From assembly GCA_026395055.1 (NCBI GenBank), contig JAPLZK010000002.1:56940-120939 (forward strand): a stretch of DNA of 64,000 nt, given 5' to 3'. A program made the translations under genes and the position numbers. This document shows, one piece after another, positions 1 to 25,542 of this stretch. The notes under the pieces are model-generated. The model was given only the letters and a program-made list of their open reading frames with translations, had not been told where the DNA came from and made no database searches. Positions within the stretch are counted from its first letter, which is position 1. Each line of letters opens with the position of its first letter. This stretch comes from Candidatus Uhrbacteria bacterium. Its GTDB lineage: Bacteria; Patescibacteriota; Patescibacteriia; UBA9934; GWF2-40-263.

Positions 1-33
1 ATCTGGATCCATCATCGAGGTTTCATCATCTTC

Positions 34-816
34 ATGTTCGGCGCGTTCCTTTTTTGCGCCTCAATCGTCCTTTTTTGCACGCACGGCGACAAGGTGCGTA
101 AGGCAGAAGATTACTGTGGTTGCTACGACTACGATCATGCGGAGGTGGAATGGTTTGGTGATGGCGTCACGTGCATCGGCAAGCGGACGTACGAAGAAGA
201 TCGCGCGCCGCTTTTCTGGGGCGGTGGCGATCGTCGTCACTCATTCAAACTCGATCCGAAGATTCGTACATCGCTCGAACAAGCGCGTGAGGATCATCGT
301 CGTGAAGTAAAGGACGCGATGAAGCGGGTAGAGCTCGAGCATATTCTGTGGACGCCGCTGTGGGTAATCATCGACACGAAGCTCGTGAACTGTGTGCCGT
401 CTCGGTTTAACCGCGATGGGACAACCGCCGAGCTCTCGTGTATGCAAGAGATCGACAAGCATATGGACTGCGACAACTTCACACCGGAATTCGAACCAGT
501 TTCGTCGGACTTCGGGTGCGACATGTACTTTCGGGCAAAGGCCTACGCGAGAGCTGGTGGTGTGAAGTTCAATGCGTCGACGGGACATATTGTTCCGACG
601 TTGGAGCAGGAGTTCCGGGAAGACTGTGTCATCCTTGAACTTACGAACAAAGGCATCCCGCTTCGTCGCATGTGCAAAATGACAACCGACAAACAAGAGG
701 GGACCGTGACTTCCTGCTCGGTTCGTCTTGAAGATAACTTCGAAGTGCATGCCGCGTACGACGTCCCATGCATCGACTTCGACAAAGCGCGAAAAGCACA
801 TCCGGCCAAGTCGTAG
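34..816 (+). CDS. Secreted Cys-rich protein, unknown function (260 aa)
   Basis: Long ORF with a hydrophobic N-terminus (MFGAFLFCASIVLFC) and 13 Cys. No family recognised. Overlapping antisense ORFs treated as shadows. Confidence 0.5.
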   Translation: MFGAFLFCASIVLFCTHGDKVRKAEDYCGCYDYDHAEVEWFGDGVTCIGKRTYEEDRAPLFWGGGDRRHSFKLDPKIRTSLEQAREDHRREVKDAMKRVELEHILWTPLWVIIDTKLVNCVPSRFNRDGTTAELSCMQEIDKHMDCDNFTPEFEPVSSDFGCDMYFRAKAYARAGGVKFNASTGHIVPTLEQEFREDCVILELTNKGIPLRRMCKMTTDKQEGTVTSCSVRLEDNFEVHAAYDVPCIDFDKARKAHPAKS

Positions 817-853
817 TCAATTCGACAACGTTCCTTTTCAAACTTGTTTGATA

Positions 854-919
854 CGACTCGGAACTCCGAATCGCATCGAACCTTTTCCTGAGCTATCGAT
901 AAGGTATCGAGCTCTCAGG
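854..919 (+). promoter_or_regulatory. Island junction unit (IJU), variant
   Basis: Short hairpin cgactcgga/tccgaatcg, then CCTTTTCCTGAGC-tatcgataaggtatcga-GCTCTCAGG long hairpin. Followed by RBS agagg and the ATG at 948. Confidence 0.6.
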
Positions 920-947
920 TTGAGATACTTGAATCAAAGAGGTGAAC

Positions 948-1277
948 ATGGAGTTTATCATCGATACACTCATGAAGATCATGATTGGTGCGTTCGTGAT
1001 TGGAACGTTCACGACGCTCATGTTCTTGTTCAGTTACGGTTCGTTCAAACACAAACTCATTCTAGTCATGATTGTCCTCTACGGGATGTACTTCGAGCAA
1101 TTTCTTTCGATTATGAGTATGACAAGTTGCATTCTCCTTTTTCACCATCTTTCCGAGATCCCACTTCTTGAAAGGAAAATACGCAGATTGCCTGAGCGAG
1201 GAGAAGAGATACCAGGGTTGCCGGAACCGCATCCGCTCGAACTCATCTTTACGGTGGGGGTAGATCGGATCGCGTGA
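948..1277 (+). CDS. Small membrane protein (109 aa)
   Basis: ATG 6 nt after the agaggtgaac RBS. Two or three hydrophobic segments (IMIGAFVIGTFTTLMFLF, LILVMIVLYGMYF). Confidence 0.45.
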   Translation: MEFIIDTLMKIMIGAFVIGTFTTLMFLFSYGSFKHKLILVMIVLYGMYFEQFLSIMSMTSCILLFHHLSEIPLLERKIRRLPERGEEIPGLPEPHPLELIFTVGVDRIA

Positions 1278-1313
1278 GGAATGACCCATTGATTCGTAAA
1301 CGAACTTTTTTCT

Positions 1314-1379
1314 CGACGAGAAATATTTCTCGTCGCTTTTCCAGAGATCGCAAGCGAGTGCTTGTAGGATCTGAGAAAA
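1314..1379 (+). promoter_or_regulatory. Island junction unit (IJU)
   Basis: CGACGAGAAA-ta-TTTCTCGTCG hairpin, CTTTTCCAGAGA, gatcgcaagc/gcttgtaggatc stem, TCTGAGAAAA, then GGAGG RBS. Confidence 0.7.
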
Positions 1380-1396
1380 TTTCAATGGAGGTGTGT

Positions 1397-1897
1397 ATGT
1401 TTCGTAAATTGGTTTTTCTATCCGTGTGTTTTCTTGTTGTGTCATGTCGTCAGGCTGAATTGCCGGTACCCATGGTCAAGCAGAAAAGTTCTGTGAAAGA
1501 AATGCCTCCAAAAGTTTCGGCTGAACAAACGTACTTGTGTGATGAAACTTACACGATCGATTTTGCCAAATCGAAAAGCACAAATGTGAGCGATATGTAT
1601 GCGTGTCAGACTTCGATGGGCACAAGATTGCTTCCGGCTCGATACGGTGCGGCAGAAGTCTTGTTTACGCCAATTGCGCCATCTGGAACTCGATTCACGT
1701 TTCAGATTTTGACTCATGGCACAAATGCTATTGCTGTCATGGTGCACGGCAAACAAACATCGGTTCACGAAAACTTCCTTACCGGATCTTGTGGAGTATT
1801 TTCTACGAGTGGAGGAGTTGTCGGAAGCGATTACGTCGTTCTCGATTCGACGGTAACCACTGATAAGGTGAGCGTTAGGATTACTTGTGCTCTTTAG
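1397..1897 (+). CDS. Putative lipoprotein (166 aa)
   Basis: GGAGG RBS 5 nt upstream. Signal peptide MFRKLVFLSVCFLVVSC with a lipobox-like VVSC. Confidence 0.5.
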   Translation: MFRKLVFLSVCFLVVSCRQAELPVPMVKQKSSVKEMPPKVSAEQTYLCDETYTIDFAKSKSTNVSDMYACQTSMGTRLLPARYGAAEVLFTPIAPSGTRFTFQILTHGTNAIAVMVHGKQTSVHENFLTGSCGVFSTSGGVVGSDYVVLDSTVTTDKVSVRITCAL

Positions 1898-1911
1898 GCA
1901 TCCGCTTTCTC

Positions 1912-1978
1912 GGCGATGATTCTCATCGCCGCTTTTCCAGAGACTCCCATCAACAGGTGATGGGGTGATCTGCGAAAG
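1912..1978 (+). promoter_or_regulatory. Island junction unit (IJU)
   Basis: GGCGATGA-ttc-TCATCGCC, GCTTTTCCAGAGA, CCCATCA/TGATGGG stem, TCTGCGAAAG, then ATAAGGAGG. Confidence 0.75.
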
Positions 1979-1992
1979 ATAAGGAGGAAGAT

Positions 1993-2400
1993 ATGCGAAC
2001 GTTTCGATTGAAGTGGAAGAAGGGCGATGCGGAAACTGTGACGGGTCTGTTTCTCTCGGATGCGTTGAGCAATGCCGGTTACGGTCGAGGCGCGACGGAC
2101 GAACTCGAGACGTATCAACAAGTGATTTATCTCGCCGTCTTCGATCCGAATTCCCGGATCACGCAGATCGAGGAATTTTCGGAAGGGGCTGACAAGAAGA
2201 TGAACTTCGAAGTCATCGTCGGCGCAACACGCGTTGGACGAAGTGTTCAACTCACGTTCGACAATGGCACCGTGAAACGCATCAATGTCGGCGAGCACGG
2301 GCAGTTGATTTCGGGAAACGGATCGGGCGATTGCGTTTGCGCAGCGTTCGATTTGTATCGCGAAGCGGAAGAATGGGAAGAGGAGCAGATGGCGGAGTAG
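1993..2400 (+). CDS. Hypothetical protein (135 aa)
   Basis: AAGGAGG RBS. ORF fills the gap between junction units. No family recognised. Confidence 0.5.
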   Translation: MRTFRLKWKKGDAETVTGLFLSDALSNAGYGRGATDELETYQQVIYLAVFDPNSRITQIEEFSEGADKKMNFEVIVGATRVGRSVQLTFDNGTVKRINVGEHGQLISGNGSGDCVCAAFDLYREAEEWEEEQMAE

Positions 2401-2456
2401 TGAGACGCATCTCGGAAATACCAAGGATGTAAATTATCGCCAACAGATAAGGAGAC

Positions 2457-2750
2457 ATGATGCTGATCTTTTCACCAAGATGGTGGCAGAGGCGAAAGGG
2501 GGAGCGAATGCTCGCTCGTATTATGGAAGAAGTGGAAAAGTGCAAGTGCACAAAGAGTTTGATCGAAAGACAACTCGCGTTTGCACGTACGCACGGAATC
2601 GAACAGCAGATCAAGGAATGCGGAGAGATGCTTGCATTTCTGGAAATACAACTGCGCTTCAAACAGTTGGAGTATTTGGTTGTGGTGCAAGAACAGCACG
2701 CGAAAGCAACAAAGGGAATTTCCAGCTTGATAAACGCGAATCTCAAATGA
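2457..2750 (+). CDS. Hypothetical helical protein (97 aa)
   Basis: AAGGAGA immediately upstream. Second gene of a cassette (no IJU upstream). Start uncertain. Confidence 0.4.
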   Translation: MMLIFSPRWWQRRKGERMLARIMEEVEKCKCTKSLIERQLAFARTHGIEQQIKECGEMLAFLEIQLRFKQLEYLVVVQEQHAKATKGISSLINANLK

Positions 2751-2764
2751 TCGATCTGCCTTGA

Positions 2765-2835
2765 GAATATCTAAAAATATTTCCCAGGGCCTTTTCCAGA
2801 GATCCCGATCGAAGTGATCGAGCGATCTGAGAAAG
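2765..2835 (+). promoter_or_regulatory. Island junction unit (IJU)
   Basis: Weak AT hairpin, CCTTTTCCAGAGA, gatcg-rich stem, TCTGAGAAAG. Confidence 0.6.
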
Positions 2836-2899
2836 CGACCACCCCCTAACCCACTCCTTGTGAAGGATGGGGGAGATGGGTTCATACATAGAGGTGAAC

Positions 2900-3202
2900 A
2901 TGTTCGATCTGTTCGATCGGTGTTTGATTGCCGGCATCGTGCTTGCGGTTGGGGGGCTCGTCTTTCTGCGCAAGCGCGAACGGTCGGAAGAAATTGCGGA
3001 ACAGAATGCAGAGCCGGTGATCGAAGTGGATCATCGCCCGAGCGCTACCATCATCGAATTTCCGATGCATCGCCGGCCAATGTACGATTCGCTCCCTGGC
3101 TTTGGCTGGGAGGAAGCGGAGGTCATTGATCTTGCGGAGTGGAAATTGCTGCGTCTGCAACGGATGTGGGCTCTGCAAAATTCGCGTGAAGCGATTCTGT
3201 AG
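2900..3202 (+). CDS. Small single-pass membrane protein (100 aa)
   Basis: RBS agaggtgaac identical to the one before 948. TM segment CLIAGIVLAVGGLVFL. The ORF track starts at 2867. Confidence 0.45.
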   Translation: MFDLFDRCLIAGIVLAVGGLVFLRKRERSEEIAEQNAEPVIEVDHRPSATIIEFPMHRRPMYDSLPGFGWEEAEVIDLAEWKLLRLQRMWALQNSREAIL

Positions 3203-3217
3203 TTTGTTCTTTTTCTC

Positions 3218-3276
3218 GGCGAGAATCTTCTCGCCCCTTTTCCAGAGAACATGAGCGCTGGGCTTGTGAACTCTGA
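3218..3276 (+). promoter_or_regulatory. Island junction unit (IJU)
   Basis: GGCGAGAA-tc-TTCTCGCC, CCTTTTCCAGAGA, catgagc/gcttgtg stem closed by CAGAG/CTCTG. Confidence 0.7.
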
Positions 3277-3320
3277 CATAGGTACGAACAGACGTTCGGA
3301 GTTTCCGGACCAGGAGAAAG

Positions 3321-3644
3321 ATGCGCGACATTTTCTGTACGTTGTTTCTGGTGGTGCTCGCCGCGTTCCTTGTGCTCTCGTCGCACGGACAGCAGTTCAC
3401 GATGACCATCGGTTCGCACACGCTCAGCATGGGCGTCCAGCACTCGACGGCCAAGCTCGAAGCGCGCGTGGCGGAACTCGAAGCGGCGCAAGCGGCACAG
3501 GTGGTCGAAGAAGATGGTGAAGAAGAAGGGGAAGACGTTGTGGGCGAAAATGAAAACGTCTGCGATGTGGAAACCACCTGCTGTGCATCGAGTGAAGTGC
3601 AGATGACTTGCGCGTTCAACGAGGACGCGGAAGAAGAAGGTTAA
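3321..3644 (+). CDS. Secreted acidic protein (107 aa)
   Basis: RBS aggaga. Signal-like N-terminus MRDIFCTLFLVVLAAFLVLSS. Glu-rich C-terminal half. Confidence 0.5.
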   Translation: MRDIFCTLFLVVLAAFLVLSSHGQQFTMTIGSHTLSMGVQHSTAKLEARVAELEAAQAAQVVEEDGEEEGEDVVGENENVCDVETTCCASSEVQMTCAFNEDAEEEG

Positions 3645-3689
3645 TCAAAAAACGCCCGCGAGAAATCTCGTCGGCAAGAAGGAGAAAAG

Positions 3690-4022
3690 ATGAATTGGAT
3701 CAAGAAGAATCTGTGTTGGGCTACGTGGATCGCAATGTACGCAGCATTCCTGTTCACTTACATCGTACCGGTTGTCGGCTTTGCTTTGCAGATCATGATT
3801 TGCGTCGCGTGTTTCGCTCTGGAAAAGGTTTGGATCGATCATTCGGTTCAGGATCCACTTTCGTTCTTCCGGCGTTGCCCCATGTTCAGTGCGGCATTCC
3901 CCAGTTTTTTCATCGGGATCGTGGAAGTGAAATTCCACACGCCCGGTCTGCTGACACGCATGCTTTTTTTGCTCTTCTGCCTGTGGGTGGACAAAAAGGC
4001 GTTGAGTCAGAAGGCTGCGTAA
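3690..4022 (+). CDS. Multi-pass membrane protein (110 aa)
   Basis: RBS aaggaga. Three hydrophobic segments. Confidence 0.5.
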   Translation: MNWIKKNLCWATWIAMYAAFLFTYIVPVVGFALQIMICVACFALEKVWIDHSVQDPLSFFRRCPMFSAAFPSFFIGIVEVKFHTPGLLTRMLFLLFCLWVDKKALSQKAA

Positions 4023-4033
4023 CGTTCTTTCCT

Positions 4034-4102
4034 GTTCGAGCACATGCTCGAACCTTTTCCAGAGACTCTCACCGAACGGTTCGGTGGGGTGCTCTGCGGG
4101 AG
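4034..4102 (+). promoter_or_regulatory. Island junction unit (IJU)
   Basis: GTTCGAGCA-ca-TGCTCGAAC, CTTTTCCAGAGA, CACCGAAC/GTTCGGTG stem, CTCTGCGGGAG, then ACAACAAGGAGAAC. Confidence 0.75.
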
Positions 4103-4120
4103 TACAACAAGGAGAACATT

Positions 4121-4465
4121 GTGCGACAAGTGGAACAATCTAATGGTGTTCGTTATTTCGCGTGCGTGCTCGGCGTGCTCGCGACGCTCATTCTCATGGG
4201 TTGCTGCGGTGGCAACAGTGGAAATGCTGCGTCGGCTCCGCTTGCGTACAAGGCGACGTCGTCGTGTTTCACGCCGGCGAATTTCCGGGAGTCCTCGATG
4301 CAGAATACTGATTACAGCCTGGAGCTGTGCGAATATTCCGTTGAGAAGGATGAACACTATGCTCGTACTTGTTTTGCGAGTCGTAACCCGAATTGGCAAA
4401 GTGCCACGACGTTCTCGGTCCCGTGTGCGGACTTTGACGCGATCAAGAAGATCACCGGAAATTAA
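4121..4465 (+). CDS. Putative lipoprotein (114 aa), GTG start
   Basis: AAGGAGA 5 nt before the GTG. Signal peptide with LILMGCC lipobox. Four further Cys. Confidence 0.45.
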   Translation: MRQVEQSNGVRYFACVLGVLATLILMGCCGGNSGNAASAPLAYKATSSCFTPANFRESSMQNTDYSLELCEYSVEKDEHYARTCFASRNPNWQSATTFSVPCADFDAIKKITGN

Positions 4466-4501
4466 ACGCCCGCCCGAGGTTGGGTCGGCACGGAGGTTTG
4501 C

Positions 4502-4843
4502 GTGAAGAATTTTGGAGCGTTCATTGGTGCAATCGGCGGCGCATCCGCGGCGGGTCTTTGGCATCATTTCAATCCGGATACAGGATTTGGTGTGCTCTTG
4601 CTCTGTTCGATGGTCGGCGGCGGCGTCGTGGCGATCATGTGGCTTGCCCTTGTGTATCACCTGAATATTCCACAGGTTCCAAAGCCGAGTCGTGCAGAGT
4701 TGTTCGAAGCAACGCGTGTGGAACTCGAACGTCAGATTGCGGAAGCGACGGAAGCGTGCGGGTCTGAACATGCGGATGCTGTGTACGACTTGCGCAAGGA
4801 GCTCAACGCGTTCAATTACCTGAGCGATCGCCTGAGCTTTTAG
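4502..4843 (+). CDS. Membrane protein (113 aa), GTG start
   Basis: GGAGG RBS. Gly/Ala-rich TM segments followed by a helical tail. Confidence 0.5.
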   Translation: MKNFGAFIGAIGGASAAGLWHHFNPDTGFGVLLLCSMVGGGVVAIMWLALVYHLNIPQVPKPSRAELFEATRVELERQIAEATEACGSEHADAVYDLRKELNAFNYLSDRLSF

Positions 4844-4854
4844 TTCTTTTTCTC

Positions 4855-4921
4855 GCCCGAGTTTCTTCGGGCCTTTTCCAGAGATCCTCACCGAACGGTT
4901 CGGTGGGGTGCTCTGAGGAAG
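4855..4921 (+). promoter_or_regulatory. Island junction unit (IJU)
   Basis: GCCCGA-gtttct-TCGGGC, CTTTTCCAGAGA. Same CACCGAAC/GTTCGGTG stem as at 4034. CTCTGAGGAAG. Confidence 0.75.
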
Positions 4922-4944
4922 TTTTACAACAGGAGAACATCCGA

Positions 4945-5526
4945 ATGGATTTCAAGTATACGTTCGACGGTCAGTTGACGGGTTGGAGATGGAAACTCGT
5001 TCTCATCGCGATCTTCGCCATCTTTGTGTACGAGGCGACGGGACAATCTCCTGCGCTTGCGTTCTTGGCGGTCGTGATTCCGGGAGTCATCCTCTTCTCG
5101 CGCATCAGCTTCAAAGCGAAGAGTGATCTGGGTGTGATCGATATCCGTCCGGACACGCCGACGAAATTTCGTTTGCATCTTCCGGAGGAATTGAGCGTAT
5201 CGATTCGGGCATCTGCATTCGTGGAGCCAGATCCGCGTCAAGATCGTATCGACGAACTCGAATCCGAATTGGAGGACGCGGACAGCGAACTCGAAGATGC
5301 GGATTCGGAATGGGAGGATGCAAAAAGCGAACTCGAAGATGCAGAATCGGAAGTGCGAGATGCACAAGATGAACTGCGTCGGGTCGAGGAAGAGCGCGGT
5401 TCACATTTGGTAAATGTTTCCGAATACGCATCGAAGCGTGCGGAAGCGCAGGCAAAGAAAGACAGAATCGAAGCGGAGCTTGCGAAAGCACGCGAGCCGA
5501 ATGCCGAGAATACGACCATCACCTGA
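4945..5526 (+). CDS. Membrane-anchored acidic coiled-coil repeat protein (193 aa)
   Basis: RBS caggagaac. Two TM segments, then the ELESELEDADSELEDADSEWEDAKSELEDAESE repeats. Confidence 0.5.
   Translation: MDFKYTFDGQLTGWRWKLVLIAIFAIFVYEATGQSPALAFLAVVIPGVILFSRISFKAKSDLGVIDIRPDTPTKFRLHLPEELSVSIRASAFVEPDPRQDRIDELESELEDADSELEDADSEWEDAKSELEDAESEVRDAQDELRRVEEERGSHLVNVSEYASKRAEAQAKKDRIEAELAKAREPNAENTTIT
5254..5375 (+). repeat. In-frame tandem ~24-bp repeats (SELEDAxx units)
   Basis: agcgaactcgaagatgc(g/a)ga(t/a)tcggaa recurs. Encodes an acidic heptad-like repeat. Confidence 0.6.
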
Positions 5527-5595
5527 TCTTGTTGATCGGGAGTGATGTACAACCAGCGTTTCTCAACAATCCCAATCGGGATGGAGGCAGTGTTC

Positions 5596-6081
5596 ATGAT
5601 TCCATTGCTCGTTTATCTCGTCGTCACGTTCTTCTTGAACCACATCGTCGCGCAAGTGAATCTGTCTCGCGTGGCGGAGCATCCGGTTCGGAAATCAGGT
5701 TTCTTGCTCGATGTTGCGACGTTCTGTGCGGTTCTTCTGCGCGTGCCGTTCTACCTGTTCGGCATCGTGGTCTACAGCCTGTGCTGTATCGGCACAATCA
5801 TCGCGGCAGCCGCGGATTTCATTCCGGAATACACCATGACACTTTGGATCTACGTGCTTGCCGATAACCTCGGCTACGCGTCCTATGCGTTTCGTGCGCT
5901 TCTCGTGAAGGAATTCCATTTCCTGCAGAGCTTTGCAGCAAGTTCGTGGGCCATCACCTACTACGATTTTCATCTCACCTACGATACACGAGTGTTCTCG
6001 TTTCTCGTGTCGCCGCAAAAGGGATATCGTTCGCACAGTATTGCGCCCGAGCTTGTTGCTCGGCGCAAAATCAACACCTAG
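5596..6081 (+). CDS. Multi-pass membrane protein (161 aa)
   Basis: ggagg lies 8 nt before this ATG (MIPLLVYLVV...). ORF track start 5542 is possible. At least 4 hydrophobic segments. Confidence 0.45.
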   Translation: MIPLLVYLVVTFFLNHIVAQVNLSRVAEHPVRKSGFLLDVATFCAVLLRVPFYLFGIVVYSLCCIGTIIAAAADFIPEYTMTLWIYVLADNLGYASYAFRALLVKEFHFLQSFAASSWAITYYDFHLTYDTRVFSFLVSPQKGYRSHSIAPELVARRKINT

Positions 6082-6097
6082 ACATAGGGAGTCTGTC

Positions 6098-6229
6098 ATG
6101 CAAGTGATGTATTTTCTCGGTAACGCAATGAATGTGGTGATCGTCGGTGGTCTCTTGGTTTCCGCCGTCGTCATTCCACGTGATCTACTGCGTGGCGCGT
6201 TCAGTCGCAGCGCGCAGCGCAAAGCGTAA
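6098..6229 (+). CDS. Small TM peptide (43 aa)
   Basis: gggag RBS 6 nt upstream. Single TM segment NVVIVGGLLVSAVVI. Short, so tentative. Confidence 0.3.
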   Translation: MQVMYFLGNAMNVVIVGGLLVSAVVIPRDLLRGAFSRSAQRKA

Positions 6230-6250
6230 TTCGACAACGTTCTTTCTCTT

Positions 6251-6316
6251 GGCGAGAATCTTCTCGCCTCTTTTCCAGAGACTCACATCGATGGATGATG
6301 TGGTGATCTGCGAAAG
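6251..6316 (+). promoter_or_regulatory. Island junction unit (IJU)
   Basis: GGCGAGAATCTTCTCGCC, TCTTTTCCAGAGA, CACATC/GATGTG stem, TCTGCGAAAG, then ATAAGGAGG. Confidence 0.75.
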
Positions 6317-6330
6317 ATAAGGAGGTTCCG

Positions 6331-6954
6331 ATGCGGGATTTGGAAGCGATGTATCTTGAACACTTGGCGTTCGTGCGTGCGAATCTTGCGCTGCTCGGCG
6401 TTGAGGATCCGGAAGTGATGATTGCGTTTCGTGTAACGGATCAACGGCATAAACAACCGGACCGAATGATTACGTTCGATCTTTCTCTCTCAGAAGCACT
6501 ACATCACGAAGTGTGTTGTGCATGGCGATCATTTTTCGCCCCGCGATGGCCGGAGGAAACGACTTACAAGCCTGAAGTGCAGATGAATGGGGAATTGTTC
6601 GGGTATCTTGATTCGTCAGGATTCCGTTACAAAGATCCGCCTTCGCTCAGGCTTGCCCTTGCGTGGATGATTGTTGCCAGGTGGGAAAATCCACCGTTTC
6701 TGTTTGATCTTGATAAGGCTGTGAGTGTTCTTGCTGCCGTAGTTGCCGAAGGTGTGACCGAAGAGATCTTTGTGATGAAGTGGCTTCCAGCCCTGAAACA
6801 CGTTTTCGCGTTGCAACCCGGGATGACTGTTCGGGATGGTTATCGATCGTCCGAGGTGTATCTCTGGCGTGTAGCAACAAAAGATGTGTACGGCGAATCA
6901 CACCCTGGGTATCCAGGACGTGTGGAGCCGTGTTATCTGTTGCGTGTTCTTTGA
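6331..6954 (+). CDS. Hypothetical cytoplasmic protein (207 aa)
   Basis: Strong RBS. No signal peptide. No family recognised. Confidence 0.5.
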   Translation: MRDLEAMYLEHLAFVRANLALLGVEDPEVMIAFRVTDQRHKQPDRMITFDLSLSEALHHEVCCAWRSFFAPRWPEETTYKPEVQMNGELFGYLDSSGFRYKDPPSLRLALAWMIVARWENPPFLFDLDKAVSVLAAVVAEGVTEEIFVMKWLPALKHVFALQPGMTVRDGYRSSEVYLWRVATKDVYGESHPGYPGRVEPCYLLRVL

Positions 6955-6961
6955 AGCGTTT

Positions 6962-7020
6962 GGCGAGAATCTTCTCGCCTCTTTTCCAGAGACAACAAAC
7001 AGGTTGTGGTCTCTCAGAAG
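6962..7020 (+). promoter_or_regulatory. Island junction unit (IJU)
   Basis: GGCGAGAATCTTCTCGCC, TCTTTTCCAGAGA, GAGACAAC/GTTGTGGTCTC stem, CTCAGAAG. Confidence 0.7.
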
Positions 7021-7073
7021 GTTACAGACAGCATCAGTTGCATGCGACCATCCGTCGTTTGCTTGGAGGAAGT

Positions 7074-7367
7074 ATGGCGTTACCGATCATTGGGTATCTC
7101 GCGCGTTCCGATTGGGAAGATCCCGAGGACAGCGTCGTTGTCGCGATCGAAGATTGCGCGGAACCACAAGTGTTCCGTGTGCTTGCCGCAGAATGGTGTG
7201 CGAAAGAAAACACTGTTCACGTTGTGACCAGGTGGATGCGCGGAAAAGCGCCGATCAAAGTTCGCCTTGGCGAATCCGCCGTTGACTCGATGGCGGAATG
7301 TAGTCTCAAGTTCTGTGCGACGGAAGCTCTGGCCATCGAATGGCTGGGGACACAGTCGCAGTCGTAG
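7074..7367 (+). CDS. Hypothetical protein (97 aa)
   Basis: tggagga RBS 4 nt before the ATG (MALPIIGY...). The longer ORF 6780-7367 overlaps the previous gene and the IJU. Confidence 0.45.
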   Translation: MALPIIGYLARSDWEDPEDSVVVAIEDCAEPQVFRVLAAEWCAKENTVHVVTRWMRGKAPIKVRLGESAVDSMAECSLKFCATEALAIEWLGTQSQS

Positions 7368-7388
7368 GTTGTTTATCGTTCCTTTCTT

Positions 7389-7455
7389 GGCGAGAATCTT
7401 CTCGCCCCTTTTTCAGAGATCAAGAGTGAATGGCATTTGTGGTTTCTGTCAGAAG
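7389..7455 (+). promoter_or_regulatory. Island junction unit (IJU), weaker stem
   Basis: GGCGAGAATCTTCTCGCC, CCTTTTTCAGAGA ... TTTCTGTCAGAAG. Confidence 0.6.
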
Positions 7456-7484
7456 TGTTTCGTTGTTTTGTACAGGAGGGAAAG

Positions 7485-7649
7485 ATGGCACTGTTGGCTT
7501 TCATTGCAGGATGTTTCGCGGGTTCGATCATGTTTGTCGTCGCATGCGGTCTCCTTGGATACCGGATGATGCGCTCGGTCATGAAGGGGCAGAAGCCTCG
7601 TCTCGATCGTCCCGACGTGAAATATACGTTTCCGAACAAAAAGGAATAA
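7485..7649 (+). CDS. Small TM protein (54 aa)
   Basis: AGGAGGG RBS. TM segment MALLAFIAGCFAGSIMFVVACGLLG. Confidence 0.4.
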   Translation: MALLAFIAGCFAGSIMFVVACGLLGYRMMRSVMKGQKPRLDRPDVKYTFPNKKE

Positions 7650-7651
7650 TC

Positions 7652-8020
7652 ATGTACGCACGAAATCAAAACGTGGCGGCATGGGTCGCTATCGTAAACG
7701 CAAACGGGTATCAAGAAGTTTGTCCCGTTTCGAAAACGCAAAATGTGTACGCGCAATTCTCTCCGGTGATCCTTCGCTGGAGTCGGGAAGGGGAAATCAT
7801 TCTCGAATTCGTGAACAAGCCGCGAGCGCGACCGTTCGACCCTGACGATGATCGCAAGAATGAAATCGTTCGCGTAAACATCGGCAACGGCGTGATCACG
7901 AAGCGTGACTCGGATTGGAATCCGATTCTGCGGTGTGTTCCATGCGCATCGCATGCGGAAGCAATCATCGAGGCCAAGCGATTGATGGAAGTCATGATGG
8001 ACTATCAGGCGGCGGCGTAA
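7652..8020 (+). CDS. Hypothetical protein (122 aa)
   Basis: Starts 2 nt after the previous stop. Followed by a strong terminator. Confidence 0.5.
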   Translation: MYARNQNVAAWVAIVNANGYQEVCPVSKTQNVYAQFSPVILRWSREGEIILEFVNKPRARPFDPDDDRKNEIVRVNIGNGVITKRDSDWNPILRCVPCASHAEAIIEAKRLMEVMMDYQAAA

Positions 8021-8031
8021 GGTTTTTTCTT

Positions 8032-8063
8032 GACCAGACTCGAATGAGTTTGGTCTTTTTTTT
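8032..8063 (+). terminator. Intrinsic terminator ending the small-ORF array
   Basis: gaccagact-cgaatg-agtttggtc hairpin followed by T8. Confidence 0.8.
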
Positions 8064-8071
8064 GATGATGG

Positions 8072-8115
8072 GCTCGAAACCTCCCCCAACCCCTCCTTTG
8101 CAGGAGGGGCTTTGG
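8072..8115. repeat. 44-bp inverted repeat, left arm
   Basis: gctcgaaacctcccccaacccctcctttgcaggaggggctttgg. A perfect reverse complement lies at 8536-8579. Contains the internal hairpin cccctcc/ggagggg. Confidence 0.95.
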
Positions 8116-8146: not shown

Positions 8147-8530
8147 TTAAATGTATTGGGTTGGTCGTGCTGGTTGTATTGCGAGAATTTGTTTGATTCT
8201 GCTAATGACAGAGTTTGTGTTGTTTATTACTTCGTCGTTTGTAAATCGAATCACTTTGATTTCGTATCCTTCAATTATTCGTGACCGTTCCTCGTCATGT
8301 GTTTTTCCTTCACTGGTAAAATGCTGCGAACCATCAAGTTCGATTGCCAATCGTTTTTCGGAGCAATAGAAATCTACAACGAAAGAATCAATACCATGTT
8401 GTCGACGAAACTTAAAGCCTAACTTCTTGTTTTTAAGATGCTCCCATAAATAATTCTCCGCACGCGTCGCTTCGTTACGAAGCACGCGCCTCACATCCTT
8501 TTGATAGAACCGATTAAAAAGTTCATGCAT
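8147..8530 (-). CDS. DUF559 (Vsr-like) endonuclease-domain protein (127 aa)
   Basis: Motifs LRNEATRAENYLWEHLK, FRRQH, VDFYC, AIELDGSQH, IRFTNDEV. Start set at MHELF, because the longer ORF runs into the repeat and smc. Confidence 0.75.
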   Translation of the reverse strand: MHELFNRFYQKDVRRVLRNEATRAENYLWEHLKNKKLGFKFRRQHGIDSFVVDFYCSEKRLAIELDGSQHFTSEGKTHDEERSRIIEGYEIKVIRFTNDEVINNTNSVISRIKQILAIQPARPTQYI

Positions 8531-8535
8531 AAAGT

Positions 8536-8579
8536 CCAAAGCCCCTCCTGCAAAGGAGGGGTTGGGGGAGGTTTCGAGC
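8536..8579. repeat. 44-bp inverted repeat, right arm
   Basis: Perfect reverse complement of 8072-8115. Confidence 0.95.
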
Positions 8580-8594
8580 TTGTCCTCCAAGTCA

Positions 8595-10859
8595 TTATCG
8601 TCTCGCCGTCGCGCCACTCGCAACTTCTTCTAACTTCACGGAGAGCAAATTGCTGACTCCGTCGTCTCCCATGGTCACTCCATACAAGACATCTGCTTTT
8701 TCCATGGTTGCGCGGTTGTGTGTCACAACAATGAACTGAGAATTTTTTGATAGGTCATCAAGAATGGAGGCAAAGCGCATCGTGTTTGATTCATCGAGCG
8801 CGGCATCAACCTCATCGAGCACCACGAATGGGGCTGGGTTTACGGCCATGATAGCGGAGAGGAGGGCAATAGATGTAAGCGCACGTTCTCCTCCAGAGAG
8901 AAGATTCAAGGATTTCAATTTCTTTCCCGGAGGTGTTGCTTGAATATCGATTCCGACCACGCCGTCATCGTACGCGGCAATGCGTTCACGGATGGCATCT
9001 GTCTTATCGCGTTCCGCTTCACCTGTATCTTCGAACACGCGTTCTGGTGTGACTTCTGTTTCTTCATCTGCTTTCAAATCTTCTTTTGAGAGCTTGATGA
9101 GGGAACACGATCCACCGTTAAACAAAATTTTGAAATACTTTTCAAACTCTTTGTTGATGAGTGCGAAGACCTTCTTCGACTGGGTTGCAATGTCTTCATC
9201 AAGTTCGATCACGATTTTTTCGGTTGCGTTGATCGCTTTTTTCAAATCTTGAATTTGCACATCCAGAAACTCGAATCGCTTTTTTGTATCTTCATACTCA
9301 ACAACGATTTCTGGATCGATTCCACCAATCAGTTCAAGTTTGTAACGCAAGCGTTGGATTTCTGGGTAGATGGCGTTTGCATCCACGGCGTATTCTTCCC
9401 GTTTTGTGCGAACAGCAACTGCCGATTCTTTCATCGCTTCATCCATTTCACGATTCAAACTTTTCTGACGCTCTTCGAATCGTGCGGATTCGATGTTGAT
9501 GGAGTTGCGTTGGTTCTCGAGTAAATGAATTTGTGTTTGCTTCTCACGCAACTCCCGTTGCATGTCGATCAACTCTGTGCGAACTTGTTTTTCTTTTTGT
9601 GCGTACGAGTCAATCTCACGTTCTTGTTCAACAAGTTCTGCTTTGATGCGTTGCTCGTCGAGTGCGAGCGCGGCTTTCTTTTCGAGAAGCACAGGATCCG
9701 GTTTGATGTCTTCTGGATTTGGTTTGCGCAAACGCTTGTTCAATCCAACAACTTTGTCGAGAACAGAATCGATCGCAAGATGAAGGGCATCAATGTCTTT
9801 GAGGGATTTTAAATTTTTGAGGAGAACATCGAGTCCATCAATCTCTTCCACAATTTTCAAAAGGGGGAGTGGGGCCCAGTTTGATTGCGCACGCACTTTT
9901 GTGAGCTCGATTTCTTTTTCGATTTGAAATTGTGCTTGGCGACACGTGTCACGCTCACGTTGTTTTTCGCGGTATACTTTTTGTAATGCGGTGAGTCCTG
10001 CATCTTCTCCTGTTTCAGAAGTCTCGACCGCTTTTGTTCGTGATTCGATGACTTCAAGTTCAGATCGCTTCTCGAGAATGCGACCATCGATCTCACCAAG
10101 CTGCGCTTTCACGCCCGCGAGTTCGTCTACAATATTCCACCAGAGTGTTCCATAGTAAGATGTTTCCATTCCACGCAATTCACGTTCCACTTCTTCGCGT
10201 TCCGAGAGTCTTGAAACCTGACGCTTGAGGGATCGTAAGCGCGGTTCGATTTCTTGCACGAGCATTTCTACGTCTGTGAGATTTTCGAGTGTGCGTTTTA
10301 ATTTCAAAATCGCTTCATGGCGTTTGAGTTGAAGAGGCTTTACTCCGGTCGCGTCATCAAAAAAACTTTTGCGCTCTTCAGGAGTTGAAACCAGAATGTG
10401 ATCGATCATGCCTTGTCCGATGACCGAGTAGGATCGTTGACCAACGTTTGCTTGTGCGAGGAGAAGTTGGATGTCCGCAAGGCGCGCCGTGCCATCGTTC
10501 AAAAGATATTCTGAGTTACCATCGCGGTAGAGTCGGCGTGTGATGGTGACTTCGGAATAATCGATGGGCATCATTTTGTCTTCGTTGTTGAGCGTAATAG
10601 AAACTTCCGCGAATCCAGAACGGCCGCGACCTTCCGAGCCAGAAAAAATCACGTCCTCGGATTTCTTTCCGCGAAGAAGCTTCATGCTCTGCTCACCCAA
10701 AACCCAACGGATGGCATCCGCAAGATTGGACTTTCCTGATCCGTTTGGTCCCACAATGGAAGTGAGTGGATAGCGATCTACCGCGGGCGGAAGAAACGAA
10801 AGGGAAGTTTTTTTGGCAAAGGTTTTGAATCCTTGAACGGAGAGTTTCGACAGGTACAT
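8595..10859 (-). CDS. smc: SMC-family chromosome segregation ATPase, short form (754 aa)
   Basis: N-terminal GFKTF...IVGPNGSGKSNLADAIRWVLGEQS. C-terminal LSGGERALTSIALL and VLDEVDAALD. Long coiled coil in between. Confidence 0.85.
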   Translation of the reverse strand: MYLSKLSVQGFKTFAKKTSLSFLPPAVDRYPLTSIVGPNGSGKSNLADAIRWVLGEQSMKLLRGKKSEDVIFSGSEGRGRSGFAEVSITLNNEDKMMPIDYSEVTITRRLYRDGNSEYLLNDGTARLADIQLLLAQANVGQRSYSVIGQGMIDHILVSTPEERKSFFDDATGVKPLQLKRHEAILKLKRTLENLTDVEMLVQEIEPRLRSLKRQVSRLSEREEVERELRGMETSYYGTLWWNIVDELAGVKAQLGEIDGRILEKRSELEVIESRTKAVETSETGEDAGLTALQKVYREKQRERDTCRQAQFQIEKEIELTKVRAQSNWAPLPLLKIVEEIDGLDVLLKNLKSLKDIDALHLAIDSVLDKVVGLNKRLRKPNPEDIKPDPVLLEKKAALALDEQRIKAELVEQEREIDSYAQKEKQVRTELIDMQRELREKQTQIHLLENQRNSINIESARFEERQKSLNREMDEAMKESAVAVRTKREEYAVDANAIYPEIQRLRYKLELIGGIDPEIVVEYEDTKKRFEFLDVQIQDLKKAINATEKIVIELDEDIATQSKKVFALINKEFEKYFKILFNGGSCSLIKLSKEDLKADEETEVTPERVFEDTGEAERDKTDAIRERIAAYDDGVVGIDIQATPPGKKLKSLNLLSGGERALTSIALLSAIMAVNPAPFVVLDEVDAALDESNTMRFASILDDLSKNSQFIVVTHNRATMEKADVLYGVTMGDDGVSNLLSVKLEEVASGATARR

Positions 10860-20897: not shown

Positions 20898-21959
20898 ATG
20901 CACGCAGGCATGACGGTCAATGGATTGACAATCGGTGTTCATCGACCACGGAAAGATCCACGTCGCGGACGTGTACTTGCCGCGAGAGCACCACAAGGTG
21001 TGCATAACATTGCGGACTACAAAGATATGCCGCAAGGTTGGCCGCGTGCGCAAGGTCCAAACGAGTTGTCGTGTTTTGTGGGGGTCACAGATGAACATGA
21101 GATGTGGTTTGATGTGCGTCCGCTGAATCAGCATTCGCATTACGCTGCTGTGGTCGTGATCGTTCAGCGCGTGAATGCGCTGACCGCTCGCACAGCGGAT
21201 CACGTCTATCTCGAGAAATACGTAGACACGTGTCCGAAGCATGAGACTCTATTCGAGGCAGAACGCTTTTGCCCGGAATGCAAGTTCAAGTGGCCGGCAC
21301 AAAACTACATCACCAATGCGGGCGGTGCAGATTCGGAGAGGCAGTTCTGGCTTGATGGTTGGCGTAGCCAAGACGGTGAGATTCGCCAGTTCGTCTTTGC
21401 GGACGTGGAAAAGGGTCTTGGCGTTGCACAGCAGTTGATTGGCGAAGAGCGCACGGCGGACATTCGCTTCGCGATATTCCTTTCGAAGGAACCGAAGCCT
21501 GTTCCGCCGCGCTTGCAAGCTGCACGTCGTGGCGGGGGAGATATTGTCGATTGTTATTTGGGTGACAATACGAAGGGTGGCGGCTTTTTGGGTCACGCTC
21601 TGAATAGTCCCGTGTTCGGCGCAAAGGTTGATTCAAGCTCGCAAACGCGTTCCTTGAACATGATGGCGACGCTTGGTGCTTCCAGTTTGGGTGATGAGGA
21701 CGCGTCGTTCTTGCAAGGAAACGATCCAAGGACGATCGGTGCTCCGGTGAAGCAGGAGGTTTCCTTTGGTCGCGCGGTGGACCAGAAGATTCATCCGGAT
21801 CCGCATGACATTGGCTTCTGGCAGGACGAACCCGCTGCGGTCATCATGCTCACGCCAGCACCTGCGGCTTGGGTTGAGACCGTGACGCGCAATGGCGCGA
21901 CGGTTGATCGCACGCTTGGCGGTATGGGGCCGCTCGCGGGATTGAAGGGCGTTGGCTAA
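20898..21959 (+). CDS. Hypothetical protein with CPKH...CPEC zinc-ribbon (353 aa)
   Basis: Long GC-rich ORF. No family recognised. Start uncertain. Confidence 0.5.
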   Translation: MHAGMTVNGLTIGVHRPRKDPRRGRVLAARAPQGVHNIADYKDMPQGWPRAQGPNELSCFVGVTDEHEMWFDVRPLNQHSHYAAVVVIVQRVNALTARTADHVYLEKYVDTCPKHETLFEAERFCPECKFKWPAQNYITNAGGADSERQFWLDGWRSQDGEIRQFVFADVEKGLGVAQQLIGEERTADIRFAIFLSKEPKPVPPRLQAARRGGGDIVDCYLGDNTKGGGFLGHALNSPVFGAKVDSSSQTRSLNMMATLGASSLGDEDASFLQGNDPRTIGAPVKQEVSFGRAVDQKIHPDPHDIGFWQDEPAAVIMLTPAPAAWVETVTRNGATVDRTLGGMGPLAGLKGVG

Positions 21960-21971
21960 GACGGGACTCTT

Positions 21972-21998
21972 GAAAGCTGAAAGGCTTTCTTTTTTTTG
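21972..21998 (+). terminator. Intrinsic terminator
   Basis: gaaagc-tgaaag-gctttc hairpin followed by T9. Confidence 0.7.
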
Positions 21999-22047
21999 GA
22001 GGGGCAAGGGATTAGTAGCTAACTGGCTTACTAACCCCTAACCCCTC

Positions 22048-22085
22048 TTGACGTTTCTTTAGTATGTGTATAACCTACACTTAGT
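22048..22085 (+). promoter_or_regulatory. Promoter P1 with 28-bp box TTTAGTATGTGTATAACCTACACTTAGT
   Basis: TTGAC at 22048. The box differs at a single base (C for T) from the one at 23671-23698. Confidence 0.65.
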
Positions 22086-22270
22086 GGCACATGTCGCCCG
22101 GAAAACGGACGGGAAACGCTTGACATAATCCGGATCCGCGACTAGGGTGCTGTATTGTTCTTTCTTGCTGGCGAATGGCTTTGAGAAGATTCTGTGAATC
22201 TTTTGAAAGCCGTTCGTCATCAGGGTGTTCCTGAAGTTGCCGTGCGGTGGTTCTCACAAGGAGTATTTCC

Positions 22271-23614
22271 ATGCCCGCCAAGCCCAAGGCACCCGTTGCC
22301 GCTACTGCCGAATCCGGCGCCACTGTTCCCCCCGCGAGTCCGAAGTGGACGGCGCTCGTCGAAAAGTTTGCGGCCTCGACCGGTCTCGGTATCGAAGTCG
22401 TTGGCCCTCGTTTCAAGACGCTCACTGGCACGGACGACGACGCTGGTGTGGAGTTGCTCGAGAACGCGGCAGACACGCCCGACCAGGAATTGAAGACGTT
22501 GTTCGCGGCTGATGGTGTCGCTTCGGCGCGCCTGAATCGCGCGATTCGCGAGATGCGTTTGGTTGCAGCTCCTGTCGTCCCCGTCGCTCCGGCGCCTGGT
22601 CCGTCCGCGGCCGTTCCGAACGTTGGTTCGACTCCGATTCTGCTGACGCAGGCTCCGGGGGACGATGATCTTCTCCGCGCGTTGCGGATTGGCGGTCGTC
22701 CCGAATTCGAAGCGGCCAACTTGGCTGCGGTCATTCGCGCGGCTGTCGCGGCGAAGAACGGATTGTATGGGTTGCCGAAGCGCTTGCAGGAGGCGATTCA
22801 CGAGACGGCTCGTCGTACCAAGAAGCCTGCCCCCGCTGTGCTCGTCGAAATTCGTCGCGAGCTTGCTCGGCGCAGTGATCAGGCCGCGTTGTTCGCCGAT
22901 CTGATGCCCGGTCAGGATGGTGCGAACTACGTCACGGCCGAAGACAAGGTCCAGACCATCAAGGATCTCGACAAGGTTTGGCCGGCGTTCATGCAATTTC
23001 AGCAGCAGCTTCGTGGTTTCCGCGATGAAGCGGTGAACGTTGCCATGACGGCAGGGATGATGGGCATGCAAGGCATGAACATGGGTCTCGCTGCCGCGGG
23101 TCTCACCCCGGAAATGCTGGTTGGTACCAGTTTGGATGCCCAACCGTACGTAGACGCGAGTGAAGGGATCATCAATGCCCTGAACGAGGTCTTCGCGGAC
23201 ATGGGTTTGTACGCTTCGCGCGTGCTTGCCGTGGAAGCGCATCGGTTGACGCAAATCGTGCAGAAGGACGAATTGATCGCTGCCGTTGGCGCGACCAATC
23301 GCGAAGAGATGTTGCTGACGCTGAAGATCGGCATGACGTCCGACGTCATCCGTGCGCAGCAGAACCTGGTGACGTGGGTCGTGAACGTGATCGATCTGCC
23401 GAACAAGGATGCTATGAGTTTGCGCGGCGTGCTTCTCACGTTGTTCCAGCTCGGTGAGCAGATTCCGTGGGAAAAGCTCAGCAATGGCGCGGTCAGCTTG
23501 CCGCGGCAGTCGATGGGCAATGGCGCGAGCCGCCCCTCAATGGACGGCCGTCCGCTCCCCGGCCAAAAGCAGCCCGGCAACACGGCGTTCAGCAGCAACA
23601 ACGGCCGCGACTAG
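22271..23614 (+). CDS. Hypothetical protein, Ala/Pro-rich N-terminus (447 aa)
   Basis: aaggag RBS 7 nt before the ATG (MPAKPKAPVAA...). Met/Gly-rich patch MTAGMMGMQGMNMGL. No family recognised. Confidence 0.55.
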   Translation: MPAKPKAPVAATAESGATVPPASPKWTALVEKFAASTGLGIEVVGPRFKTLTGTDDDAGVELLENAADTPDQELKTLFAADGVASARLNRAIREMRLVAAPVVPVAPAPGPSAAVPNVGSTPILLTQAPGDDDLLRALRIGGRPEFEAANLAAVIRAAVAAKNGLYGLPKRLQEAIHETARRTKKPAPAVLVEIRRELARRSDQAALFADLMPGQDGANYVTAEDKVQTIKDLDKVWPAFMQFQQQLRGFRDEAVNVAMTAGMMGMQGMNMGLAAAGLTPEMLVGTSLDAQPYVDASEGIINALNEVFADMGLYASRVLAVEAHRLTQIVQKDELIAAVGATNREEMLLTLKIGMTSDVIRAQQNLVTWVVNVIDLPNKDAMSLRGVLLTLFQLGEQIPWEKLSNGAVSLPRQSMGNGASRPSMDGRPLPGQKQPGNTAFSSNNGRD

Positions 23615-23627
23615 AAGCCCTTTCCTC

Positions 23628-23655: not shown

Positions 23656-23660
23656 GTTGC

Positions 23661-25537: not shown

Positions 25538-25542
25538 CTCTT

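Follow-up and report, generated by a model that had tools for sequence, protein, structure and literature searches.

A strain-variable cassette array beside smc in Candidatus Uhrbacteria and its covarying two-hairpin junction element

Introduction

The Candidate Phyla Radiation (CPR)/Patescibacteria are ultra-small, largely uncultured episymbionts whose surface proteins are thought to set host range, and the strain-level diversification of their tiny genomes is poorly understood. A 64,000-nucleotide stretch of one such genome, a Candidatus Uhrbacteria metagenome-assembled genome (MAG; contig JAPLZK010000002.1, forward strand positions 56,940 to 120,939; here called the window), opens with a row of small co-directional genes separated by ten repeated junction units, and so raises the question of what these units are and what they do for the genes that lie between them. 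Each unit places two hairpins and a core sequence between a stop codon and the ribosome-binding site (RBS) of the next gene, and the fold covaries across related arrays. The region would be the distal part of a strain-variable cassette operon adjoining smc. The reading favored here is of a single operon of promoterless cassettes in which the repeat is a structured intercistronic RNA module that also drives cassette turnover by homologous recombination; taken as a whole, this reading is given about an even chance of being correct. The locus is a concrete and easily recognized hot spot of gene turnover, with flanking genes about 80% identical between genomes and almost all cassettes different; a covariance model of the element, spanning 48 positions, finds the array. 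It also adds a new, strongly covarying structured element that is absent from Rfam.

The array and its junction units

Positions 1-8063 of the window hold 17 plus strand open reading frames (ORFs) of 43-277 residues. The ten units (~100-130 nt each) divide this row into one- to three-gene cassettes, and a strong terminator closes it. A GGAG/AGGA-type Shine-Dalgarno sequence stands 5-12 nt 5' of the start in 17/17 ORFs, the start contexts having been read by eye and that of the first ORF taken from Logan contig L107. An earlier sequence-only reading of this DNA had claimed about 17 small co-directional ORFs, ten junction units delimiting one- to three-gene cassettes, and a small-genome epibiotic source. 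The ORF calls and a Shine-Dalgarno at every start bear out the first claim, with sizes now 43-277 residues; nine core matches and a variant unit at 881 bear out the second; and the organism, a CPR bacterium, agrees with the third. The bounds it gave, 34-8063, hold at the terminator end and fail at the start: the window begins within the array, which continues upstream (L107; NTX72_01145), where the true start of the first ORF lies 51 nt before the window and an 11th unit lies just 5' of it.

All compared sequences are MAG or metagenome assemblies, in which the units are assembly-breaking repeats; contigs of related genomes and metagenomes carry L labels (L064 is MGEI01000005.1; L055, CAYHWG010000039.1; L065/L057, CAYHDY010000009.1; L108, Logan SRR20698643). 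The order of the window is confirmed by independent Logan contigs over 1-879 and 859-6278, at 99.97-100% identity. Of the five Logan contigs covering the array, four terminate within units, and since the units thus break short-read assemblies, such arrays are probably under-represented or mis-joined in MAGs. One contig, L108, identical to window 3215-6278, opens with an ORF 3' end (L108 1-235) that is absent from the entire window and is joined via hairpin A (GGCGAGAATCTTCTCGCC) to unit J5; this join is either a real variant with an unseen cassette or an assembly mis-join via the 31-nt shared repeat.

The order of elements is stop codon, pyrimidine box GTTCYTTTYC, hairpin A, invariant core CTTTTCCAGAGA, hairpin B, (GA)TCTGNGAAAG, RBS leader and start codon. 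Hairpin A is GC-rich and comes in several sequence families, e.g. GGCGAGAATCTTCTCGCC or the long form TTCGACC..TTCGGAA.TTCCGAA..GGTCGAA, and it ends 1-2 nt before TTTT in 54/54 units examined; hairpin B is variable in sequence. With at most one mismatch the 12-nt core has nine plus strand matches in 64 kb, all within 1336-7419, and one extra minus strand match inside an ORF; ~0.54 matches are expected by chance, and 0/100 shuffles reach 10. No plus strand core match or covariance-model unit occurs in the remaining 56 kb of the window (8-64 kb). The tenth unit, at 881, carries a covarying variant core, CCTTTTCCTGAGC, that pairs with GCTCTCAGG so that complementarity is kept, and the identical variant is found in L056. 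RBS contexts are reused: agaggtgaacATG twice and ACAAC(A)AGGAGAAC twice, both already noticed in the sequence-only reading, and in addition GATAAGGAG three times. The units and the array end are as follows, with bit scores from the covariance model and z scores from whole-junction folding.

J1, 817-947, plus strand: box GTTCCTTTTC; long hairpin A ~846-880; B element 881-922; z -2.8
J2, 1278-1396, plus strand: hairpin A 1314-1335; B element 1335-1379; 45.3 bits; z -3.2
J3, 1898-1992, plus strand: hairpin A 1912-1930; B element 1931-1978; 64.6 bits; z -4.0
J4, 2751-2899, plus strand: hairpin A ~2758-2790; B element 2790-2835; 63.4 bits; palindromic insert 2842-2875
J5, 3203-3320, plus strand: hairpin A 3217-3234 (GGCGAGAATCTTCTCGCC); B element 3236-3281; 38.6 bits; z -3.1
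J6, 4023-4120, plus strand: hairpin A 4035-4052; B element 4053-4102; 60.5 bits; z -4.9
J7, 4844-4944, plus strand: hairpin A 4855-4872; B element 4872-4921; 63.4 bits; z -3.9
J8, 6230-6330, plus strand: hairpin A 6251-6268; B element 6269-6316; 61.4 bits
J9, 6955-7073, plus strand: hairpin A 6962-6979; degenerate B element 6980-7021; 19.4 bits
J10, 7368-7484, plus strand: hairpin A 7389-7406; B element 7407-7454; core CTTTTTCAGAGA; 38.0 bits; z -3.1
Array end, 8022-8063, plus strand: box-like GGTTTTTTCTTG, then a 10-bp stem at 8032-8055 and T8

Some units in relatives have two distinct tandem hairpin A modules before the core, TTCGACC...GTCGAAC and then CCTCGACAATATTC...GATATTCGTCGGGG (L052, oriented, 790-860; L101 1170-1255), which indicates that the junction is modular. 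The insert in J4, CCCCCTAACCCACTCCTTGTGAAGGATGGGGGAG, separates the B element from the RBS of ORF 2900-3202; a similar sequence is present at ~29314-29349 of the window and in L052.

No junction matches Rfam 15 at the gathering threshold, and at E up to 5 the only matches that overlap junctions are two of chance level (17.9 and 22.5 bits, the gathering scores being 55 and 60). A tRNA-like punctuation was rejected, since ARAGORN finds no tRNA in the array.

A covarying fold kept on the sense strand

Among 45 copies of the B element, drawn from ten or more arrays, 95.4% of cells are paired, as against 33-54% in slid controls; the covariation score of 0.349 (0.122 in shuffles) is reached by 0/500 of these, and 7/7 pairs of the inner stem P2 show double changes. 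RNAalifold independently returns the same fold: a stem P1 in which UUCCAGA pairs with UCUG-N-GAA around a bulged N, a 3x3 internal loop with G·A pairs (columns 12-14 and 39-41), and an 8-bp P2. The unpaired N is C, A or U and never G in the 45 elements, and GA stands opposite GA in the internal loop (44/45 and 36/45 units). The unit upstream of the window, CCGGAGA...TCCG, shows a compensatory change of a pair that is A-U in 45/45 aligned units. The long form of hairpin A likewise has double changes in 11/15 pairs, with 85% paired vs 27-51% when slid. Folding of whole junctions gives z < -2 in 8/10, with -1.4 for J9, the weakest, and -2.0 to -4.9 for the remaining nine.

Two observations bear on the strand. 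Paired columns read on the sense strand contain 89 G·T cells vs 6 A·C cells. On the plus strand the covariance model scores eight window units at 38-65 bits and J9 at 19.4 bits, with J1 undetected at E<=1, and on the minus strand of the window it gives at most 19.4 bits; for array units overall the figures are 38-72 bits on the gene strand vs at most 23 bits antisense. From the excess of G·T cells and the strand-biased model scores it follows that the sense strand is the one on which the structure is conserved, the simplest form being RNA, i.e. mRNA. The sequence-only reading had seen the junction units and missed this covarying two-hairpin structure.

One locus, adjoining smc

A scan of 185,579 species-representative genomes finds multi-unit arrays only in Candidatus Uhrbacteria MAGs and in two contigs labelled Gammaproteobacteria, and a metagenome scan added further arrays. 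The two exceptions, L055 and L065/L057, come from MAGs labelled 'uncultured Gammaproteobacteria' and bear Uhrbacteria junction units; they are probably mis-binned, since the smc of L055 is ~76% identical to that of the window and L057 shares its rpsP region and promoter/leader with the Uhrbacteria scaffold L063. On the 569-kb scaffold MGEI01000005.1 one locus only is matched. A motif scan of 2.9 million viral contigs gave no multi-copy matches (42 matches, all single and chance-like), and annotated phages and plasmids gave no match.

The array adjoins smc in the window, L064, L050 and L055; DHH and ClpP genes follow smc in the first three, and the L055 stretch ends inside smc. These flanks (smc and neighbours) are 76-81% identical at the DNA level between the window and L064, L050 and L055, whereas within the arrays DNA-level alignment is limited to the units and one ORF. 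The other side of the array is formed by rpsP (L063, L057, L094) or by khpA-trmD (L055). A literature search returned nothing relevant on integrons or gene cassettes in CPR, Patescibacteria or Uhrbacteria, and neither the element nor the array has a description in Rfam or the searchable literature; the array is of the cassette kind best known from the integron, with a new junction element.

Just beyond the array terminator a DUF559 endonuclease-like ORF (8147-8623, minus strand) lies between 55-nt inverted repeats (8061-8115 and 8536-8590), each ending in the palindrome CCCCTCCTTTGCAGGAGGGG, to which the J4 insert is related. Since L064 has a single copy of the repeat between array terminator and smc, the DUF559 gene looks like an insertion polymorphism.

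Turnover of cassettes at a fixed site

An all-versus-all protein comparison finds cassette families (F) common to several arrays in differing orders. Crude maps of three arrays, in which x denotes a cassette with no assigned family, read:

MGEI: F1 / F1 / x F2 / x F12 / ... F10
CAYHDY: F6 / F2 x / x / F1 / F1 / F16 ... F7
CAIKXH: F2 x F6 / F1 ... F14 / F7

Six window ORFs (those starting at 1397, 4121, 4502, 5545, 6331 and 7074) have homologues in other arrays. The homologue of 6331-6954, 45% identical and found by protein search alone, is a unit-flanked single-gene cassette in array L109, where a gene like 5545 lies downstream of it, the reverse of the window order. Relative to L052, L101 has an additional 494-nt cassette that runs exactly unit to unit, and L052 has an extra 432-nt segment (ORF plus unit) on either side of which lies one copy of a 40-nt direct repeat made up of leader, RBS and ATG.

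Window units 3237, 6270, 6981 and 7408 have the same hairpin A and different B, while units 4054 and 4873, and likewise 1932 and 6270, have B and leader in common and different A; hairpins A and B thus assort independently in the window, and in relatives hairpin B and the downstream leader do so as well. The independent assortment and the indels place breakpoints at the core, after the 3' box and at the start codon. That the boundaries of all these modules (hairpin A, hairpin B, untranslated region and ORF) recombine points to homology-driven exchange rather than simple cassette duplication. Of the duplication or shuffling of cassettes that the sequence-only reading had suggested, shuffling is supported, with different orders at one locus, and simple duplication is the less favored. 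The comparison with related genomes that it had proposed finds the same smc-adjacent locus and the same units, with different cassettes and orders.

The cassette ORFs are genes under purifying selection, as follows from nonsynonymous differences being proportionally fewer than synonymous ones (pN < pS) in 9/9 cassette pairs and from dN/dS of 0.11-0.72 in the eight pairs with estimable dS. Coding status had been left by the earlier reading as a point for checking, and the testable ORFs evolve as coding.

Transcription signals

Sigma-70-like sites are depleted in the array (2 found vs 6.2 expected), and a sigma-70 promoter inside the units was considered and rejected, there being no conserved -35/-10 and hairpin B being variable in sequence. 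The terminator scan is passed by 3/10 window hairpin A sites, with a tract of only 4 T in most units, and the end hairpin, with its 10-bp stem and T8, is the sole strong intrinsic terminator of the array, at the very position (8032-8063) where the sequence-only reading had put one. It is homologous to L064 1866-1951, just before smc.

Three related array heads share a near-consensus promoter directed into the array, TTGACA-17-TATATT with TG; its sequence is CC(C/A)TTGACAAAA..CCAAAA..TG(A/G)TATATT, and the regions are:

L063, 2827-3018: head promoter region
L057, 1648-1465, minus strand: head promoter region
L094, 797-769, minus strand: head promoter region

In L094 a junction unit lies in the leader ~105 nt 3' of this promoter. 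In L063 and L057 the promoter is followed by a conserved ~150-nt structured leader or small RNA (GGGGAGAGARCUGCGCUAUCCAGUCCC...) that ends in a terminator hairpin and has no Rfam match; it could control the entire array as an attenuator or in riboswitch-like fashion.

Cassette genes and their products

The ORFs of the array, all on the plus strand, are as follows (TM, transmembrane; identities and dN/dS refer to homologues in other arrays).

1-816 (window ORF 34-816), plus strand: cassette ORF 1, NTX72_01145, 'hypothetical protein'; full protein 277 residues, Cys-rich (13 Cys in 260 window residues), N-terminal hydrophobic anchor
948-1277, plus strand: 109 residues, 2 TM segments; present in Logan contigs L001 and L002
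1397-1897, plus strand: 166 residues, lipoprotein-like, lipobox VVSC; 35% identical homologue in array L055 (5861-6361)
1993-2400, plus strand: 135 residues, soluble, NTX72_01160; true ORFan, matching itself only among 5.8e9 clusters
2457-2750, plus strand: 97 residues; same cassette as 1993-2400; remnant of GATAAGGAG leader in the spacer upstream
2900-3202, plus strand: 100 residues, N-terminal TM segment
3321-3644, plus strand: 107 residues, signal-peptide-like N-terminus, acidic C-terminus
3690-4022, plus strand: 110 residues, multi-TM; preceded by a 'mini-junction' hairpin, 3650-3682
4121-4465, plus strand: 114 residues, lipoprotein-like, LMGC; 33% identical homologue in array L064; dN/dS 0.43
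4502-4843, plus strand: 113 residues, TM; preceded by a mini-junction, 4464-4496; 51-58% identical homologues twice in array L097; dN/dS 0.42
4945-5526, plus strand: 193 residues, TM anchor and acidic coiled-coil region with 14-residue tandem repeat
5545-6081, plus strand: 178 residues, 3 TM segments; homologues in arrays L064 (59%) and L109 (52%); dN/dS 0.37
6098-6229, plus strand: 43 residues, TM; also called as a 43-residue gene in L108
6331-6954, plus strand: single-gene cassette, 207 residues, soluble; 29 distant relatives among 1.84e9 representatives
7074-7367, plus strand: 97 residues, soluble; 55% identical homologue in array L097; dN/dS 0.18
7485-7649, plus strand: 54 residues, TM
7652-8020, plus strand: last cassette ORF, 122 residues, soluble

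A Pfam search of the 17 window ORFs gives no family, with sub-threshold coiled-coil noise only, for 4945-5526, in accord with the orphan status they had been given from the sequence; among 26 array ORFs of relatives the only match is to a MopE-type metal-binding motif, present in large lipoproteins of other arrays. ORF 1 has 2 protein matches among 5.8e9 clusters, i.e. one relative. The AlphaFold model of 6331-6954 is confident (pLDDT 86.7) and has no solved relative. Envelope-type signals (N-terminal hydrophobic segment, lipobox or TM segment) are present in 12/17 ORFs by hydropathy and lipobox scan with N-termini read by eye, where at least 11 had been proposed, and the lipoboxes VVSC (1397-1897) and LMGC (4121-4465) are among them; 5/17 look cytoplasmic. 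The acidic tandem repeat that had also been described is found at 5260-5375, with a unit of 42 nt (14 residues) in ~2.5 copies. From the envelope-type signals and the biology of CPR bacteria the cassette proteins may be proposed to act at the envelope or host interface.

The neighbouring cassettes C5 (3237-4054; 817 nt) and C6 (4054-4873; 819 nt) are built alike: first comes the gene of a secreted protein of ~110 residues, next a mini-junction AAACGCCCGC-hairpin-GGAGG at equal offset (3650-3682; 4464-4496), and last the gene of a TM protein of ~110 residues. Paralogy of the two was rejected, as there is no detectable protein similarity (z about 1.2) despite the identical layout.

A proposed structured intercistronic module with a possible second role

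How the parts might work together can be outlined as follows. The cassettes are probably transcribed from one promoter at the array head, and transcription would end at the terminator at 8032-8063. Hairpin A with its short U4 tract may act as a weak terminator or as a hairpin protecting the 3' end of the upstream message. The B element would form a two-turn helix of roughly 20 bp, made up of P1 (CUUUUCCAGA with UCUG-N-GAAAG), the tandem G·A internal loop and the variable P2 stem-loop. This helix may be recognized or processed, possibly by an RNase III-type enzyme or an RNA-binding protein, so that every cassette would receive a separate, defined 5' leader with its RBS. The size and shape of the helix match RNase III-type processing sites such as those between the T7 early genes. 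The T7 early-region RNase III sites and the REP/BIME stabilizers share with the present element a place between cistrons of one transcript (here a presumed one), a two-turn helix with internal loop just before the next RBS, and a hairpin at the 3' end of the upstream message; unlike them, the element is conserved in sequence across genera-level relatives, is confined to one locus and is tied to gene turnover, and its part in cleavage or stabilization is putative. At the DNA level the ~100-nt units would be portable homology, present in many copies in the array and in other Uhrbacteria, and recombination between them, e.g. after DNA uptake, could delete, duplicate, reorder and import cassettes, with different cassette sets at one fixed locus as the result.

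Several points weigh against this account. GC skew is positive in 31/32 2-kb bins, so that the sense strand, which is also G-rich, is probably the lagging-strand template, and single-stranded DNA could adopt this fold as well. The invariant core, the unpaired base that is never G and the tandem G·A loop are features that a DNA recombinase might recognize just as readily. Minimum free energy folds pair the pyrimidine box with the Shine-Dalgarno of the next gene (a 'P0' helix), and no claim is made for this pairing, which is no better than in controls: native duplexes have -10.0 kcal/mol vs -9.98 for cross-genome and -9.88 for shuffled ones. The head promoter is seen in relatives only, the head of the window's own array lying beyond the window, and the single promoter, read-through of hairpin A at ten or more sites and RNA processing are what we infer from these sequences. 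A repeat-rich MAG assembly could scramble cassette order, although Logan contigs confirm that of the window over the two segments given above. Within one population, from Rifle, different samples have one and the same array, L077, L079 and L082 matching MGEI, and distant relatives of ORF 6331-6954 occur without units in L110 and L111. Homologous recombination, finally, does not explain how a new gene first acquires its units.

Alternative explanations

Several features resemble those of sedentary chromosomal integrons and of clusters of attC sites lacking integron-integrases (CALINs). Both have one array per genome at a fixed site, a long co-oriented row of mostly ORFan cassettes that here appear promoterless, a structured imperfect-palindrome repeat after each cassette, a strong head promoter (here in relatives), and cassette content that varies between related genomes with conserved flanks. 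The imperfect palindromes, with their invariant core, conserved unpaired base and variable terminal stem, the unit-to-unit cassette indels, the occurrence of one cassette flanked by units in two unrelated arrays and the independent assortment of hairpins A and B across the core would all be accommodated if the unit, folded in the single-stranded DNA of the lagging-strand template, were a non-canonical site of recombination at which an unlinked or unrecognized recombinase excises and inserts cassettes. Other features do not fit. No recombinase is found at the heads of three related arrays (L063, L057, L094), which are bordered by rpsP, a promoter and small ORFs, or in the L055 upstream flank (khpA, trmD), inside the arrays tested, or among the 20 largest window ORFs, where the one relevant match is the reverse transcriptase of a diversity-generating retroelement 50 kb away, so that IntI is missing at and near the examined heads, that of the window array lying outside the window. 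A regex scan of both strands of the ten junctions finds none of the R''/R' boxes (RYYYAAC / GTTRRRY), and hence no canonical attC sites. The unit is made of two adjacent hairpins and an invariant 12-nt core rather than one hairpin, and it folds on the sense strand, unlike attC, which integrase recombines as the folded bottom strand; its breakpoints form a mosaic at three or more places (core, after the 3' box, ATG); and many cassettes hold two or three genes with no internal units. An integron-analogous site-specific platform of this kind is therefore considered doubtful, although a different recombinase could still act on these sites. Unlikely, too, is the fuller proposal of an undescribed Uhrbacteria cassette-capture system, analogous to integrons in function and distinct in mechanism, in which a dedicated unlinked recombinase or nuclease would recognize the ~100-nt two-hairpin element (core CTTTTCCAGAGA, sense/lagging-template fold) and move envelope-protein cassettes at a dock adjacent to smc. 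If the element is a DNA recombination site, it represents an integron analogue with new site chemistry; if it is RNA, it is a reusable intercistronic expression module.

Descent of the whole row from one ancestral gene with its untranslated region, by tandem duplication followed by fast ORF divergence under diversifying selection with the junction held constant and no cassette exchange, would account for the neighbouring paralogues in relatives (F1-F1 in MGEI and CAYHDY; F3-F3 in L097), the like lengths, layout and collinear mini-junctions of C5 and C6, and the reused RBS contexts. Yet no pair of window ORFs has protein similarity, the lengths span 43-277 residues with differing topologies, the dN/dS values of 0.11-0.72 denote purifying and not diversifying selection, and orthologous cassettes have different order and neighbours across genomes, which requires rearrangement or exchange; the explanation is thus quite improbable. 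Scarcely probable at all is the view of the units as selfish miniature repeats, akin to REP, BOX or MITE elements, that have settled in the spacers of an ordinary operon, or of the row as a prophage early-gene block with repeated regulatory sites. A modular unit with optional extra hairpins does recall BOX or NIMEs, and small orphan co-directional genes recall phage early regions. The pneumococcal BOX, Neisseria NIME/dRS3 and Correia elements are, like the present units, intergenic, composed of modular hairpin-forming sub-elements and possibly active in mRNA; they are, however, dispersed genome-wide in both orientations, whereas here the units are found at one locus, always on the gene strand and always in the register from stop codon to RBS. 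Against a prophage stand the lack of multi-copy matches in the 2.9 million viral contigs, the lack of any in annotated phages and plasmids, and the conserved synteny of the housekeeping flanks (smc, DHH, ClpP, rpsP).

The operon of cassettes with structured junctions may also be compared with the Mycoplasma vlp/vsp and Borrelia erp/mlp genes, which likewise are clustered small lipoprotein or membrane genes of small-genome, host-associated bacteria with near-identical 5' leaders and RBS and differing coding regions. The present genes differ in being non-paralogous, in having no phase-variation repeats or invertible promoters, and in that what is conserved between them is a covarying structure of two hairpins.

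Other features of the window

A complete diversity-generating retroelement lies at 58132-60634, 50 kb from the array. Its variable repeat (58666-58789) is at the 3' end of ORF 58132-58791, its template repeat is at 59098-59221, and its reverse transcriptase (Pfam RVT_1) is encoded at 59624-60634; every mismatch between the repeats is at a template adenine. Targeting of the cassettes by such an element was considered and rejected, since the cassette 3' ends share no variable-repeat-like sequence. A block of high GC (0.51-0.57) at 20898-30441 holds six large ORFs (329-571 residues) that have no Pfam family and is interrupted only by adenylosuccinate synthetase (27892-29277). Four tandem minus strand ORFs of 327-372 residues occupy 33518-37939, and the first and last, the two that were scanned against Pfam, match WD40/beta-propeller proteins, which are unusual for a small bacterial genome.

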